Assembly (NCBI GenBank): GCA_002478275.1
Contig: DLMY01000007.1
Coordinates: 1-55,744 of the forward strand
DNA: 55,744 nt
Direction of reading: 5' to 3'
DNA from: Actinobacteria bacterium UBA7524
GTDB lineage: Bacteria; Actinomycetota; Coriobacteriia; Anaerosomatales; UBA912
The position numbers were made by a program. The number at the start of each line of letters is the position of its first letter. The first letter of the stretch is position 1. Positions 36,001 through 42,000 of the stretch are shown here, one piece after another.

Positions 36001-39000
36001 GGCAAAGGGACCCTGGTTCGGGCACTGCTCGACAGGGTCCCGGACATCTGTCTGTCCATCTCTGCGACTACGCGCCCACCCCGACCGGGCGAGGTCGAAG
36101 GGGTCCACTACTTCTTCTTGAGCCCGGAGGAATTCTCACGGCTCATCGATGAAGACGGCCTTCTGGAGTGGGCGGAGGTGCACGGTAACAGGTACGGTAC
36201 CCCGAAAGAGGTCGTCGAGGCTCGTTTGTCCGAGGGCAGACACGTGGTGCTGGAGATCGACCCGCAGGGGGCTCAGCAGGTCAAGCGGGTCATGCCGGAA
36301 GCCGTCCTGATCTTCGTCCAGGCTCCTTCGTTGGGGGAGCTGAAGCGGCGCCTGACCAGCAGAGGTAGTGAGACGAGCGAGCAGATCGAAGGGCGGATGC
36401 GCACCGCCATGAGAGAGATGGAACTTGCGGGTACATACGACTTCGTGGTAACAAATGACGATGTCACGCGCGCCACGGACGAATTGGCGCGGATCATCGA
36501 TTCCTACTCTGACCGGAGCTGACAGGCCCGGTCGTGCCGAAATGTGAGGAAGATACAACATGGTCATCAAGCCAGAGGTCGATTTGCTGCTGTCCAAGGT
36601 CGATTCCAAGTACACGCTGTGCATCGTGTCTGCACGGCGTGCACGTCAGATCAACGACATGGTGCATGGTGTGCGTGATCAGGCCGTCCTGACGATGGCG
36701 CCCTCGCAGATCGCCGCGCTGACGAGCACCAAGCCGCTGACCCTCGCCATGGAGGAGATTGCCACCGGCGACGTCTCCTACGAGCGGGTTCAGGACAGCT
36801 ACAAGTAGCCCCCGCGCGATGTTCGAGCGCGCGGCACTCATCCACTATCACGAGATCGGCCTCAAGGGCCGAAACCGCTCCAGTTTCGAGAAGCGCCTTC
36901 GAGACAATCTGGCGCTTGCGTTGCTCGCGGTAGACGGGATCCGTGCCGAACGTATCTCCAGCCGTCTGCTGGTGCGCACTCCGGACTCTGCCGTACTCGA
37001 AGAGGTGGTCTCGCGGGTCTCCGTCATCCCGGGGGTGTCGAGCGTATCCCCCTGCTGGATCACGTCGAGGGAGCTCTCCGAGATGTGCAAGGCTTCCTCC
37101 CTGGCCATCGCCGACTCGGGAGAGTATCGGACGTTCGCGGTCGAAGCGCGCAGATCGAACACTGACCATCCTATGAACAGCATGGAGATGAACCGGGCGA
37201 TCGGACGACATCTCGTCGATGAGACCGCGAAGCGCGTCGACCTCTCGAATCCTGACGTGACAGTCAGGGTCGAGGTCGTCCAGGGAGATGCATACATCTA
37301 CAGCCGGAAGCTGCCCGGACCGGGAGGATTGCCGGTCGGGACCGGAGGGAAGGTCGTGGCACTGCTTTCGGCCGGTATCGACTCTCCTGTGGCGACTTGG
37401 CGGCTGGCGAAGAGGGGAGCGGTGCCGGTCGGCATCCACTTCTCCGGCAGGCCGCAGGTCTCCGCGAGTTCGGAGCGCCTGGTCGCTGAGATAGGCTCCG
37501 TGCTAGAGCGCCGTGGCGCCATCGCAAGGATCTACATAGTCCCCTTCGGCGACCTGCAGAAGGAGATATCCCTGCACGCCCCGCCGGACCTTCGCGTGTT
37601 GCTTTACCGGCGTCTCATGGTCCGCGTCGCCGAGGAGTTGGCGAGGATCGAGGGCGCGAAGGCGCTCGTCACGGGCGAATCACTCGGACAGGTCGCATCA
37701 CAGACATTGGAGAACATGGTGGTGGTCGATGACGCCGCGACCATGCCGATCCTGCGACCGCTCGTCGGCTCGGACAAGGTCGAGATCATCGCCGAGGCGC
37801 GCAATCTCGCCACGTTCGACCTCTCCACGCAGGAGCACGATGACTGCTGCACGCTGTTCATGCCTCGCACACCGGCGACACACGCCACGGTCGAGGAGAT
37901 CCATCAGGCCGAGGAGAGCCTGGACATGCGTCGGATGACCGGCGAAGCACTTGAGTCCATGACTTACCTGGAGTACCGGTGCCCTTCGTACAAGGCTCCC
38001 CGTACGTTGCCTGCCAGCGTCACTGCGGTCGCGGAACCAGCTGGACCTGTTGACGCTACCACGGCCGCCTCGGGTCGATGACGGCTGCCAGACTCAGGAT
38101 CCTTGCTGTGGAGCCCTACTACGGGGGCTCTCATCGTGCCGTCCTCGACGGGCTGGCCGAAAGGTACGATGCCGACTGGACGCTACTCACGTTGCCTGCG
38201 CGCAAGTGGAAGTGGCGCATGCGCGGGGCCGCCATCGCGTTCTCCCGGCGCCTGCGCGAAGAACTGTCTTCGAGCGAACATGATTCGGGCGGCACCGGGA
38301 GACCCCTGTACGACCTCGTGTTCGCTTCTAGCTTCGTGAACCTGGCAGAACTCTACGGCATGGCCGGACCCGCGCTGAGCGGTGTACCCTCGATCGTCTA
38401 CTTCCACGAGAACCAACTCGTCTATCCCAATCGCCACACCGCAGAGTGGGACTACCAGTTCCCGCTCACGAACATCACAAGTGCGCTCTGCGCGGACGTG
38501 TGCGCGTTCAACACCGAGTGGAATATGCGCACCTTCCTGGAGGAGATCCCCGCCTTCATCGCCGCGTTCCCTGACCACCGCCCGCAGGGCGTGGCGGAGG
38601 CGATCGCCGCGAAGTCGGTCGTCGTGCCTCCGCCCTTCGACCCGGTACCCTTCGATGAGGTCGTCACAGCTTCATCACCCGGTGAGGGATCTCAGCGACG
38701 AGTCCGTATCGTGTGGCCACACCGCTGGGAGCATGACAAGGATCCCGAAGGGTTCTTCGAGGCGCTCAAGGTCCTGGTCGCAACGGGTCTTGAGTTCGAG
38801 GTGGTCATAGCCGGTCAGGCCTTCGCCGAGACGCGCGACGCGGTGCTGGAGCGTGCGGCGTTCCTCGGCGATAGGCTGGTTCATGCAGGGGAGCCGGAGT
38901 CGAGGGACGAGTACGCCCGGCTCCTGTGCTCGTCGGACATCGCCGTCTCCACCGCCATCAACGAGTTCTTCGGGCTGGCGATGATCGAGGCGTGCTACGC

Positions 39001-42000
39001 GGGATGTACTCCCGTGGTGCCCGACAGGCTCGCGTACACCGACATCTATCCTGACCGGTTCCGCTATACAGGCATGGACGGACTCGTCGGCATGCTGCAG
39101 TCGCTCATCGGGCGACCGCCACCGCGCGGAGCGGCCCGCCGGTTGGCAGAAGGCTACAGCTTCGAGTGTCTCCTCGGCAGGTATGGGGAGTTGTTCGAGA
39201 AGACGGCCGCCGGCCGCTAACAGCCCGCGAGCCGGCTCGCGACGCCGTCGAGCTCGATGTGGTCGGCTTCGACCAGACTCACCGCGCCGAAGACCTCTTT
39301 GACGCGTTCGTTGGTGGCGCGGCCCATGGCATCGGCGTAGAACTTCGAGGCACGTTGCTCGCGAGCGACGGACTCCTCGATGTTCGCGCACCAGTCGTCG
39401 GATGCTTCGCCGGGAGTCGTCAGGTCCTCGGGTTCGGGTACCCCGGCGAGCTTGCAGAACAGCTCGCAGTGCTCCGCTTCGACCTTCGCGAGCCGCTTGT
39501 ATGTGCTCGAGAGCTTCATGTCGTCCTTGTGGGCGGCCATAGCGAAGTAGAAACGCGCATTGGAAAGCTCGAGCTCGATCGCTTCGAGCAGGTCGTTGCG
39601 CTCGATCTCCGTGATGTCGACCTGGTTGATGTCCTCGGGGTACTCGGTGGTGTCCACGATCGCCTCTCGATGGGCCCCACAGAACGGGCAGTGGCTCGGC
39701 GCCTCTGAGCCCAGGTAGGTCTCGCCGCAGATGCGGCACCGGTACATCTTCACGTGCGTCCTCCTTGTTCCGTCGGCTGAGCGTCCAGTGAGTCGGCTAT
39801 GGCTTCCCCGAAAGCCCGGGCAGCATCAGGGCCGCTGGCGGTGATGATCGAACCGTCGATCTCGACATCCGCGCCCGTCCAGATCGCACCATGGATCTCA
39901 AGGTCCTCGCGCTGGCTCGGAAAGCTGGTGACCCGGATGCCGTCGAGCAGCCCGGCGTGTGCAAGTGTGGAAGGAGCGATACAGATCGCCGCGACGACCC
40001 TTCCGTCCTCGTGCAATGTACGGGCGATGTTGTGGGCGAGAGGGTCATCGAAGAACGTGGCCGCCCCTGCTCCTCCGATGAAAACGACGGCATCGTATCC
40101 CGATGCGACCGCGTCTTCCAGGGCGATGTCCGCCTCGACCTCGAGCCCGAAGCGACCGACCGCCGGCCCAGCCTCTTCGCTTGCGGTCACGACCTCGAAT
40201 CCGCGAGTCTCGAGCACATCCCGGGGGTGTGCGTACTCCTCGTCCCTGAAGATCCTCTGAGCGATCACGAACAGTACGGTTCCCATCGATACCTCCACGT
40301 TCAGGCCGTATGCAAGAGATGATACCCACTGCTTCAGCTCACCGACGGCGAGAGGTCTCTGGTATCATGTGCACAAGTTTGTACACATCGACGGTGTCGC
40401 CGGGGTCTTTCGGGCAGATGGCCCGGGACCCGGCGGGGGCACGACTGACCAGAGGGGCGGCACGAGATGGATACGGTCGAGCGTCAGGGGTCGTTGGTTG
40501 ACGGGGTCAGTGAACGGGTCGCGGGCTTCCTGGACCGTCGGGACATGCTGATCGCCGCGGACCGCTACTTCTACCTGCAGGCGATCGCCGGGCCCACGAA
40601 CAACCGTGTCCGGACAGCCGACGGCAGGGACCTGGTGATGCTTGCCTCCTACAGTTATCTGGGGCTTATCGGGCATCCCCGGATCGATGAAGCGGCCAAA
40701 GCGGCGATCGACGAGTACGGGACCGGTGCAGGCGGCGTGCGGTTGTTGACGGGCACGATGGACCTTCACGAACGGCTGGAGGAGCGTATCGCTCGGTTCA
40801 CGGGTCGTGAGGACGCCTGTGTTTACTCGAGCGGCTACGTCACCAATGTCGCGATCATCACCGGGTTGACCGGCCCGGGAGACCTGATCCTCATGGACAA
40901 GCTCGATCATGCGAGCATCGTGGACGGCGCACTGTTGTCCGGAGCCAAGTGGAAGACGTACCGGCACAACGACATGGACCACCTCGAGCGGCTGCTTGCC
41001 GATGCCTCGGGACGCTACGGTACGGTACTCGTGGTCGCTGACTCGGTCTTCTCGATGGACGGGGATGTGATGGATCTTCCGCGCACCTCCGAGCTGTGCC
41101 GCAAGCACGGTGCGCGCCTCATGGTCGATGAAGCCCACTCGGTAGGCTCCCTTGGGGCCACAGGGCATGGCATCGAGGAGCACTTCGACATGCCCGGCTC
41201 GATCGACTTCAAGATGGGGACGCTGTCCAAGTCCATCCCGTCGGTCGGGGGGTATCTTGCCGCGAACAGGGACATCGTGGACTATCAGCGTCACATGTCG
41301 CGGCCGTTCATCTTCTCGGCCGCGCTGCCCCCCGCACAGACCGCCGCGGCACTGGCGGCGTTCGATGTCATCGAAGACGAGCCCTGGCGTGTTCGGGACC
41401 TGCATCGCATCACCGAGACGTATGCGGCCGGCCTCAAGAACCAGGGATGGGACACGATGGATTCGACCACGTGCGTAGTGCCGGTCCTTGTCGGTGACGA
41501 GGCGATGACGATGGACCTCACCCGGATGCTGTTCGACAGGGGAGTCTTCGTCTGCCCGATCGTCCATCCGGCCGTGCCGCGCGGGATGGACCGTCTGCGC
41601 ACGTGCCTCATGGCCACGCACACCGACGAGGACATCGCCCTCGTACTTGATGCCTTCGAGGAGTCGGGCAAGGCGCTGGGACTGATCTGACGCTATACTT
41701 CAGAGACGTCGCGCTTGAGCGGCTGCGATGCCACAGCAGTATGCAAAGGAGACCCGTATGAGAGCCGGCACCGCCCTGTCATCGCACGCCGATATGGTGC
41801 GTGGCGGAGTTGCGGCTGTCGTGCTCGGGGATTCCGTCGCGTTCGCGGTGTTGCGGGCGACGGCCGGCGAACAGCCCGGCGGCGTCGCGGTCCAGATCCT
41901 GTATCTGTTACCGATGGCGCTGACCGTCGCGCTCGCACTCATGTGCATGAAGGTGTCGCAGGGCCAGGAGAGGCGTTTCTGGGCGATGCTGTCGTTGGCG

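Follow-up and report, generated by a model that had tools for sequence, protein, structure and literature searches.

A bacterial homologue of animal QTMAN encoded directly after thiI is a candidate tRNA-queuosine glycosyltransferase

Introduction

Which reaction would a bacterial relative of an animal tRNA-modifying enzyme catalyze? The question is raised by a gene of Actinobacteria bacterium UBA7524 that lies directly behind thiI and whose product resembles QTMAN (GTDC1), an enzyme that in animals uses GDP-mannose as its donor sugar nucleotide and whose discovery is reportedly due to Zhao et al. (Cell, 2023). GluQRS (YadB), a truncated glutamyl-tRNA synthetase, is a known bacterial enzyme that adds glutamate to queuosine-34 of tRNA-Asp. 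Animal QTMAN is described, in the available portions of two reports, as the enzyme that forms mannosyl-queuosine at position 34 of tRNA-Asp (PMC11755703; bioRxiv 10.64898/2026.03.22.713446), and the available part of a third assigns mannosyl- and galactosyl-queuosine to vertebrates or animals and glutamyl-queuosine to bacteria (PMC10690763). A first-pass annotation read the UBA7524 gene as encoding a bacterial tRNA-queuosine glycosyltransferase, and here we follow up that reading.

Results

Gene order around the QTMAN-like gene

In the window (the whole stretch of DNA analyzed, 55,744 nt of contig DLMY01000007.1 from the UBA7524 MAG, which is 83% complete), the gene and its upstream neighbors are arranged as follows.

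35860..36522, plus strand: gmk, guanylate kinase, upstream gene (TIGR03263, 236 bits, cut-off 160)
36560..36808, plus strand: rpoZ, RNA polymerase omega subunit (Pfam RNA_pol_Rpb6, 8.9e-14)
36759..38081, plus strand: thiI, tRNA uracil-4 sulfurtransferase (TIGR00342, 351 bits, cut-off 264.5; ThiI_fer, THUMP and ThiI/PP-loop domains)
38078-38081, plus strand: ATGA overlap of the thiI stop (TGA) and the glycosyltransferase start (ATG), in the sequence ..gtcgATGAcgg..
38078..39220, plus strand: QTMAN-like GT-B glycosyltransferase P0001, 380 aa (open ORF, Pfam, phmmer, structure model, BLASTP)
38096..38635, plus strand: QTMAN_N domain, residues 7-186, presumed acceptor-binding half (Pfam, 9.4e-59)
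38708..39040, plus strand: GT4 donor-binding domain, residues 211-321 (Glycos_transf_1, 2.7e-9)

The open frame, its Pfam match, the TIGR00342 match of its neighbor and the ATGA overlap bear out the earlier call of a 380-residue ORF directly after thiI. A search of the genome for QTMAN_N leads to the same place, 38096..38635, and the opposite strand is interrupted by stops in the same frame. Because the first ThiI domain starts only at residue 27 of the frame as listed, the real thiI start probably lies downstream of rpoZ, at approximately 36820-36835. The encoded ThiI has no rhodanese domain. Our scans revealed no promoter-like or terminator-like site between thiI and the QTMAN-like gene and no terminator after the latter, and no riboswitches or other RNA elements were found around this gene or around queT. 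The gene follows a row of housekeeping genes, namely pyrF, pyrE, gmk, rpoZ and thiI. As the last gene of the same-strand run gmk-rpoZ-thiI, it would be produced together with ThiI through translational coupling at the ATGA, an arrangement that sets it apart from animal QTMAN. Downstream in the window, on the opposite strand, lie genes for a rubrerythrin and a DJ-1/PfpI protein.

A family-specific N-terminal half and a GT4 donor domain

The N-terminal half matches PF12038 (QTMAN_N, formerly DUF3524) with an E-value of 9.4e-59 and 198 bits (cut-off 25) over positions 1-167 of the 168 in the model. Its conserved residues are G17, S18 and H19; W44, W46 and R47; Y108, H110, E111, N112 and Q113; and F144, N145 and S146. 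Among 117 sequences, R216 of the GT4 half never varies, and conservation reaches at least 90% at K221, E296 and E304; both the R/K pair and the E-x7-E motif (E296...E304) of this C-domain align to MshA and PimA. The predicted structure adopts a GT-B fold with a pLDDT of 94.8, and Foldseek places it nearest to the solved folds of glycogen synthase, MshA, GlgM, BshA, sucrose-phosphate synthase and PimA, with E-values of 1e-14 to 1e-10 and 10-19% identity.

PimA, MshA, BshA and archaeal glycogen synthase have the GT-B fold in common with the QTMAN-like protein, and the C-domain R...K and E-x7-E motifs align to those of MshA and PimA, but none of the four matches its N-terminal half by sequence. 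These enzymes use lipids, inositol phosphate, malate or glucans as acceptors. Searched with a family profile, the N-terminal half matched no solved structure by sequence; because only the C-terminal domain matches solved glycosyltransferases, the N-terminal half is peculiar to the QTMAN family, for which comparison with the sequences of solved structures yielded no solved member. The net charge of -12 makes this an acidic protein, and GT4 enzymes can switch acceptors; we count both against an action on tRNA queuosine.

Likeness to animal QTMAN/GTDC1

The window protein matches QTMAN/GTDC1 of the vertebrate Polypterus (P0154) with a phmmer E-value of 1.8e-64. BLASTP aligns the two with 37% identity over residues 6-195 and 41% over residues 205-346, the animal insert falling between the domains, and the full-length likeness to animal QTMAN put forward in the first-pass annotation is thereby confirmed. 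When the 3220 related clusters are ranked, animal QTMAN proteins appear within the top 150. We defined a position as conserved when it is at least 85% conserved among 111 bacterial representatives. At 44 of the 46 such positions the same residue occurs in at least 80% of six animal proteins, and the other two stand at 70%; the shared positions comprise 20 in the N-terminal half, which are all those conserved there, and 24 in the C-terminal half. Only three sites resemble a clade-specific switch.

The two-domain layout, QTMAN_N followed by GT4, is colinear in the animal and bacterial proteins. They differ between the domains: each of the six animal proteins has an acidic, low-complexity and poorly conserved insert of 80-149 residues there, whereas the bacterial proteins have a linker of 9-31 residues; we count the missing insert against the same activity. 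In the tree, the animal proteins fall into a single clade (SH-aLRT 99) that branches from within the bacterial clades, on a stem no longer than those that separate bacterial phyla. A grouping of animals with Coriobacteriia, TA06 and a Myxococcota set is weakly supported (83) in this midpoint-rooted tree. On these sequence comparisons, the assignment of the window protein to the QTMAN/GTDC1 family as a true member is solidly supported.

Distribution of the family

QTMAN_N is present in 134 of 146 genomes of the order (92 of 98 among those of good quality), where the gene is near-universal and mostly single-copy; the high frequency noted earlier stands, with the present count in place of at least 114 of 145. 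None of the 201 Coriobacteriia genomes outside the order has the domain. Within the window's own family, three of four genomes are without the QTMAN-like gene yet have Tgt, which we count against the proposed role. The family as a whole spans at least ten bacterial phyla, its holders including one Coriobacteriia order, Planctomycetota, Desulfobulbia, Myxococcota, Nitrospirota, Chloroflexota, Rhodothermota and Spirochaetota, and cultured organisms are among the holders. No member was found in 14 model genomes, which would account for such a nucleoside having gone unseen in bacteria. The novelty claimed for a bacterial member is softer than proposed, since NCBI already names the close relative P0014 'tRNA-queuosine alpha-mannosyltransferase domain-containing protein'. 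The automatic JGI name for many homologues is 'glycosyltransferase involved in cell wall biosynthesis'.

Genomic neighbors

Within the order, ThiI is encoded directly upstream in 28 of 30 loci (the best-scoring 30 of 134), which upholds the linkage reported at first pass, though the count differs from the earlier 78 of 145 genomes. The accompanying caveat that the linkage is bound to the lineage also proved correct, as it is confined to Coriobacteriia and occurs in 0 of 70 loci outside. Given this restriction, and because these small genomes keep their gene order, the linkage may represent inherited synteny. Loci L116 and L117 were left out of the locus analysis.

Across 80 loci, the 8 kb on either side of the QTMAN-like gene contain no tgt, queA or queH, and in closed relatives the gene lies 126-158 kb from tgt. 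An abutting RNA-modifying neighbor on the same strand occurs in three separate lineages, namely ThiI in Coriobacteriia, RlmN at L076 and a NOP2/Sun-type m5C methyltransferase at two Spirochaetia loci, and we count this in favor of the proposed role. The tight same-strand neighbors in other phyla are mostly non-RNA genes (among them rubrerythrin, AhpC, DnaJ-TerB, shikimate kinase and an aminotransferase), which counts against it. Only 4 of 119 immediate neighbors outside Coriobacteriia are glycosyltransferases, and no recurrent pathway partner was seen across 74 loci. Open frames of 650-820 aa at some hits suggested fusion to ThiI as a family trait. We rejected this idea because a search for longer forms returned four matches, of which P0274, a single record, is the only one fused to ThiI.

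Supply of queuosine and GDP-mannose

The lineage can supply both substrates, queuosine and GDP-mannose. Tgt is encoded by 140 of the 146 order genomes and was not found in the window's MAG, just as the first-pass annotation had it. QueA is present in 74 of 74 good-quality genomes of the order and QueH in five of five, and in relatives tgt, queA and queH cluster within about 5 kb. A search of the MAG (83% complete) for Tgt, QueA, QueH, QueG and QueC found none of them; the QueT reported earlier is indeed there. GDP-mannose pyrophosphorylase is encoded in the MAG (TIGR01479, 449 bits, cut-off 373) and scores above the cut-off in four of four relatives as well.

Co-occurrence with Tgt was considered as support for the proposed role and rejected. 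Tgt is present in 299 of 301 Coriobacteriia and in 47 of 50 holders of the QTMAN-like gene from other phyla, the remaining three having QueA; because Tgt is nearly everywhere and QTMAN_N in 0 of the 201 Coriobacteriia genomes outside the order, the co-occurrence has no discriminating power. GluQRS scores above the cut-off in at least 4 of these 50 holders, a count with no matched control set, and several further short GluQRS-like frames fall just under the cut-off. Mutual exclusion of the two genes was accordingly not found, and we base no conclusion on this count. The proposed role resembles that of GluQRS in adding to the same nucleoside a likewise non-essential decoration, but the two proteins are unrelated in fold and chemistry.

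Discussion

Proposed activity

We propose that the gene encodes a soluble cytoplasmic, retaining GT-B enzyme of GT4 type, the bacterial counterpart of animal QTMAN/GTDC1. Its C-terminal domain would bind a nucleotide sugar, most likely GDP-mannose, and its family-specific N-terminal domain would grip a queuosine-bearing tRNA at the anticodon loop; the enzyme would then attach a hexose to a hydroxyl group of the queuosine-34 cyclopentenediol, so that bacterial tRNA would contain glycosylated queuosine. Acceptor, sugar and tRNA species are each inferred from homology to the animal enzyme. The first-pass reading is supported in part: family membership, and with it the conservation of every family-defining residue between bacteria and animals, is solid, and the lineage has the queuosine pathway and a source of GDP-mannose. 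With the queuosine genes unlinked, thiI adjacent only within Coriobacteriia and Tgt uninformative, it is homology that carries the proposed activity, and we put the chance that the protein is a tRNA queuosine-34 hexosyltransferase, probably a mannosyltransferase, at about even.

The family and fold could be the same and the acceptor in bacteria a different one, related to nucleic acids, such as another modified tRNA or rRNA nucleoside, an intermediate of queuosine synthesis, for instance epoxyqueuosine, or free queuosine or queuine, with animals having later restricted the enzyme they inherited to queuosine-34 of tRNA-Asp. The RNA-type neighbors fit this, as they are not specific to queuosine (ThiI, RlmN, m5C methyltransferase, KsgA, RsmG and CCA-adding enzyme), and so do the abutting genes of nucleoside metabolism, purine nucleoside phosphorylase at L111 and adenosine deaminase at L082, the unlinked queuosine genes in the 80 loci, and the coexistence with GluQRS. 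However, a change of acceptor is unlikely to leave all 20 conserved N-domain positions common to the animal enzymes and only three clade switches, and we regard this alternative as improbable.

We assign a similarly low probability to a cytoplasmic enzyme of small-molecule or storage metabolism, acting on a low-molecular-weight thiol as MshA and BshA do, on a compatible solute or in glycogen-related metabolism rather than on tRNA. The acidic protein and its nearest solved folds, which run from glycogen synthase to PimA, would suit such a role, as would the redox genes that abut it at two Planctomycetota loci (rubrerythrin at L050, AhpC at L077), the rubrerythrin and DJ-1/PfpI genes downstream in the window, and a convergent GlgB at four Desulfobulbia loci. 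Yet the fold matches are to generic GT-B enzymes at 10-19% identity and by sequence concern the donor domain only, the window's own redox genes lie on the other strand, and the 74 loci lack a recurrent pathway partner. The conserved N-domain is, moreover, common to enzymes described as tRNA-acting in the available portions of the two reports (PMC11755703; bioRxiv 10.64898/2026.03.22.713446). That the protein is an ordinary GT4 enzyme of envelope or exopolysaccharide synthesis, as the JGI naming and glycosyltransferase neighbors at L061, L104, L105 and L108 might suggest, seems very improbable to us in view of how few immediate neighbors are glycosyltransferases (4 of 119), the housekeeping run in which the window gene sits, and its near-universal, mostly single-copy occurrence in the order.

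Implications

If the queuosine-34 reading is correct, bacterial tRNA would gain a new modified nucleoside. We further suggest, tentatively and at slightly less than an even chance, that at least ten bacterial phyla make hexosyl-queuosine and that animal QTMAN derives from a bacterial gene gained by an early animal ancestor. Its origin would then be traced to bacteria, and glycosylated queuosine would not be an animal invention. If they do act as their animal relatives do, the bacterial enzymes, small, soluble and insert-free, could also serve for structures of a glycosyltransferase that reads a tRNA anticodon loop. Some genomes carry two copies of the QTMAN-like gene, and these may make two different glyco-queuosines.

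Gene context of P0001

The QTMAN-like protein of the window, P0001, is encoded on the forward strand as the last gene before a change of strand, and it combines a QTMAN_N domain (PF12038, formerly DUF3524) with a C-terminal glycosyltransferase domain.

Features of the P0001 gene and its surroundings
36560-36808 (+): rpoZ, upstream of thiI
36759..38081 (+): ThiI without a rhodanese domain; TIGR00342, 351 bits; ThiI_fer, THUMP and PP-loop domains
38078..39220 (+): P0001, open frame of 380 aa; the reverse complement in the same frame is interrupted by stops
P0001 residues 7-186: QTMAN_N domain, model positions 1-167 of 168, Pfam E 9.4e-59
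P0001 residues 211-321: Glycos_transf_1 domain, Pfam E 2.7e-9
39217-39753 (-): rubrerythrin-like protein with an N-terminal rubredoxin-like domain (residues 4-30) followed by a ferritin-like part

The thiI stop and the P0001 start share the ATGA at 38078-38081, and this overlap, together with the family score and domain content of ThiI, bears out the first-pass annotation in placing thiI directly before the gene. The genes further upstream (pyrF, pyrE, gmk and rpoZ) lie on the same strand, simple scans of the thiI/P0001 junction found no promoter-like or terminator-like site, and the downstream genes, for the rubrerythrin-like protein and a DJ-1/PfpI protein, are on the opposite strand. The P0001 gene thus closes a run of housekeeping genes, and its translation is probably coupled to that of ThiI; a simple scan found no terminator 3' of it. 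NCBIfam holds no model for P0001, the top score in our scan being 22 bits against a cut-off of 400. NCBI names one close homologue, P0014, [quoted passage not shown] and others "DUF3524 domain-containing protein."

Relationship to animal QTMAN

P0001 belongs to the QTMAN family as a true bacterial member. When cluster representatives were searched exhaustively with P0001, 3220 related clusters came up at E ≤1e-3 and 890 at ≤1e-30. Among the best 150, 8 of the 10 longer matches that were looked up are animal GTDC1/QTMAN proteins (from Polypterus, Elysia, Holothuria, Anneissia, Saccostrea, Macrostomum, Mactra and Batillaria), the other two being unnamed. The Polypterus protein matches with an E value of 1.8e-64 in this search, and by BLASTP it is 37% identical at P0001 residues 6-195 and 41% at residues 205-346.

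In an alignment of 117 sequences (111 bacterial representatives and six animal proteins), conservation among the bacteria reaches at least 85% at 46 positions. At 44 of these the same residue occurs in at least 80% of the animals, with the other two at 70%; of the 44 common positions, 20 fall in the N-terminal and 24 in the C-terminal half. At only three sites is a residue invariant in animals while a different one predominates in bacteria. Between the two domains the animal proteins carry an insert of 80-149 residues, whereas the bacterial proteins have 9-31 (median 13) at this place. The insert is acidic, consists of 41-51% S/T/P/G/N/Q and has zero invariant columns among the six proteins; it looks like a loose linker rather than a conserved module.

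A midpoint-rooted tree of 82 proteins was built with an IQ-TREE quick search under LG+G4. It groups all nine animal sequences in a single clade (SH-aLRT 99), which is surrounded by bacterial clades and placed, with weak support (83), beside a Coriobacteriia-TA06 clade and a Myxococcota group. Because the tree has no outgroup, it leaves open the direction of any transfer between bacteria and animals.

Predicted fold

The AlphaFold2 model of P0001, a confident one (pLDDT 94.8, pTM 0.93), has a predicted GT-B fold. Its top Foldseek matches, the archaeal glycogen synthase 3fro (1e-14), MshA, GlgM, BshA and PimA, share 10-19% identity with it and are all retaining enzymes of the GT4 kind. Against solved structures, the single P0001 sequence aligns with nothing but the C-domain of PimA. 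The family profile finds 22 proteins, all via its C-terminal part (profile positions 137-371), and its N-terminal half matches no solved protein in the same set, which holds no structure of a QTMAN-family member. GT-B enzymes bind the nucleotide sugar mainly in the C-terminal domain and the acceptor mainly in the N-terminal domain. The strongest argument that the bacterial and animal enzymes would share an acceptor is therefore this family-specific N-terminal half, in which all conserved residues are common to both; since some N-domain residues of GT4 enzymes touch the donor too, we infer a common acceptor rather than read it directly from the conservation.

Queuosine and GDP-mannose genes in the source lineage

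The source MAG (1.81 Mb in 60 contigs, 82.9% complete, 62.8% G+C) yielded no Tgt, QueA, QueH, QueG or QueC. Across the order, Tgt is present in 140 of 146 genomes and in 97 of the 98 good ones. QueA occurs in all 74 genomes that are at least 95% complete, and the MAG is the sole miss among the 75 searched. QueH was found in 5/5 near-closed relatives and QueG in 0/5. These relatives have tgt, queA and queH clustered within ~5 kb (e.g., 909955-915132 in the genome G017), so a single unassembled stretch would explain all three absences. QueT, a queuosine-precursor transporter, scores over its cut-off in the MAG, which fits precursor salvage; these results agree with the first-pass statement that QueT is kept and that Tgt is absent from the MAG yet present in the lineage. 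Only 27 tRNA genes are assembled, Tyr-GTA and Asn-GTT among them, with Asp and His absent. The donor of animal QTMAN is GDP-mannose, and a GDP-mannose pyrophosphorylase/isomerase (TIGR01479) scores over its cut-off in the MAG and in 4/4 relatives.

Gene neighborhood across bacteria

Of the 30 best-scoring order loci, which span at least 11 families, 28 have thiI as the immediate upstream gene in the same orientation, and in 27 the two alignments end no more than 100 bases apart. Of 80 loci from named records, 10 belong to the Coriobacteriia clade and 8 of those have ThiI within the flank, against 0 of the 70 elsewhere. Queries with Tgt, QueA and QueH from G017 gave no hit inside 8 kb at any of these 80 loci. 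With greedy ORF calling we scanned 136 immediate neighbors of 74 loci, leaving out six in which the caller had missed the QTMAN-like gene itself. Outside Coriobacteriia, RNA modification or processing genes make up 7 of 119 immediate neighbors.

Same-strand RNA-modification genes adjoining QTMAN-like genes
L076:6966-8000 (+): RlmN, TIGR00048 374 bits (cut-off 290); its end lies one base ahead of the QTMAN-like gene
L089:9119-9898 (+): NOP2/Sun-type RNA m5C methyltransferase, adjoining downstream
L103:9085-9894 (+): NOP2/Sun-type RNA m5C methyltransferase, adjoining downstream

RlmN, found here in an unclassified bacterium, also methylates A37 of several tRNAs. The two methyltransferases, from two of the three Spirochaetia loci, are 259-269 aa long, overlap the QTMAN-like gene or follow it by 2 bases, and score under every equivalog cut-off. 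Their pairing with a QTMAN-like gene is suggestive because animal tRNA-Asp bears both m5C38 and mannosyl-queuosine (bioRxiv 10.64898/2026.06.28.735034). KsgA, RsmG, a CCA-adding enzyme and an RF-1-domain protein are encoded on the opposite strand. Other tight neighbors are mixed (rubrerythrin, AhpC, DnaJ-TerB, shikimate kinase, aminotransferase and others), the DnaJ-TerB protein lying directly upstream in the Desulfobulbia-type loci L060 and L081. Overall, this looks like a stand-alone housekeeping gene with a slight tendency towards RNA-modifying neighbors, not like part of a glycan cluster.

Distribution

QTMAN_N occurs in 134 of 146 order genomes (92 of the 98 good ones), against a first-pass figure of at least 114 of 145. 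Across 301 genomes sampled from the whole class, 94 carry it, all from the source order, against 0 of 201 from the other seven families, with Tgt in 299 of the 301. Outside the class, where 50 of 70 loci were taken in, Tgt is present in 47 of the 50 holders and QueA in the other three. Within the order, neither Tgt nor QueA was found in the holders G095 (91% complete) and G100 (78%); none of the holders examined is clearly without queuosine. Because Tgt is nearly everywhere, this co-occurrence amounts to compatibility, not support. The window's own family is represented by four other genomes, three of which (G143, G144 and G145; 88-99% complete) lack QTMAN_N and keep Tgt; the gene is thus dispensable, and its absence looks like a recent loss in close relatives. 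The family is absent from all 14 well-known control genomes and thus from E. coli, a species with queuosine. Holders recorded under a name and not as MAGs include Hydrosulfovibrio ferrireducens CB1MN (L128) and Desulfobacterota bacterium M19 (L154). In 4 of 50 holders GluQRS scores above its cut-off, so glycosyl and glutamyl decoration of queuosine, if both exist, would not be exclusive.

Two QTMAN-like genes lie ~2 kb apart on one Thermodesulfobacteriota MAG contig (JBFLYY010000144.1; L133 and L136), and a Desulfobulbaceae MAG carries two on separate contigs (L186 and L188); these pairs may be paralogues that differ in the sugar or the tRNA they use. In a single ENA record, P0274 (796 aa), ThiI domains are fused to part of a QTMAN-like protein, which could be a real fusion or a gene-calling artefact. 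The records of two further loci name "Eubacteriales" (L035) and "Aeromicrobium sp." (L039); in the tree both belong to the Coriobacteriia clade, both have thiI upstream, and their bins are probably mislabelled.

Predicted activity

GTDC1/QTMAN makes mannosyl-queuosine on tRNA-Asp (PMC11755703; bioRxiv 10.64898/2026.03.22.713446), and sugar-modified queuosines are described in vertebrates and glutamyl-queuosine in bacteria (PMC10690763). Judged from sequence, P0001 would most likely attach a hexose (probably mannose) to queuosine-34 of tRNA, a function to which we give about an even chance. The first-pass annotation had already called the bacterial homologue a tRNA-queuosine glycosyltransferase; its family assignment stands on the QTMAN_N match and the 44 of 46 shared residues, and the activity holds at this lesser strength.

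Of the main rivals, action on another nucleic-acid-related acceptor, which would equally suit RNA-modifying neighbors, seems rather improbable beside the N-terminal residues common to the animal enzymes. We give similarly little weight to a small-molecule or storage acceptor, a reading to be set beside the glycogen synthase match and the convergent GlgB (glycogen branching enzyme) gene downstream in Desulfobulbia-type loci (L060, L080, L084 and L095). An envelope glycan role, as in the JGI name of close homologues ("glycosyltransferase involved in cell wall biosynthesis"), is very unlikely; glycosyltransferases account for 4 of the 119 immediate neighbors outside Coriobacteriia.

Transfer to queuosine would be modest in kind as a novelty: a known family would gain a member, one whose domain is already named in databases. 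Its appeal lies in the consequence, an easily tested prediction of a bacterial nucleoside that nobody is known to have reported. Our literature search returned no mention of "DUF3524," and queries on glycosylated queuosine and the family's database identifiers gave no paper on a bacterial homologue or glyco-queuosine, the discovery paper (Zhao et al. 2023, Cell) lying outside its scope; in two preprints, bacteria appear only as expression hosts, reagents or gut flora.

Other genes in the window

The rubrerythrin-like gene is kept at the corresponding place in the locus of a relative, L036. Beyond it, ORFs at 40365-41621 (-) and 40467-41690 (+), of 418 and 407 aa, overlap on opposite strands, and the former has no Pfam or NCBIfam match. 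In the 744-aa protein encoded at 41728-43962 (+), a GGDEF domain precedes an HD_5 domain of the HD-GYP type, and the protein is likely to act in c-di-GMP turnover.
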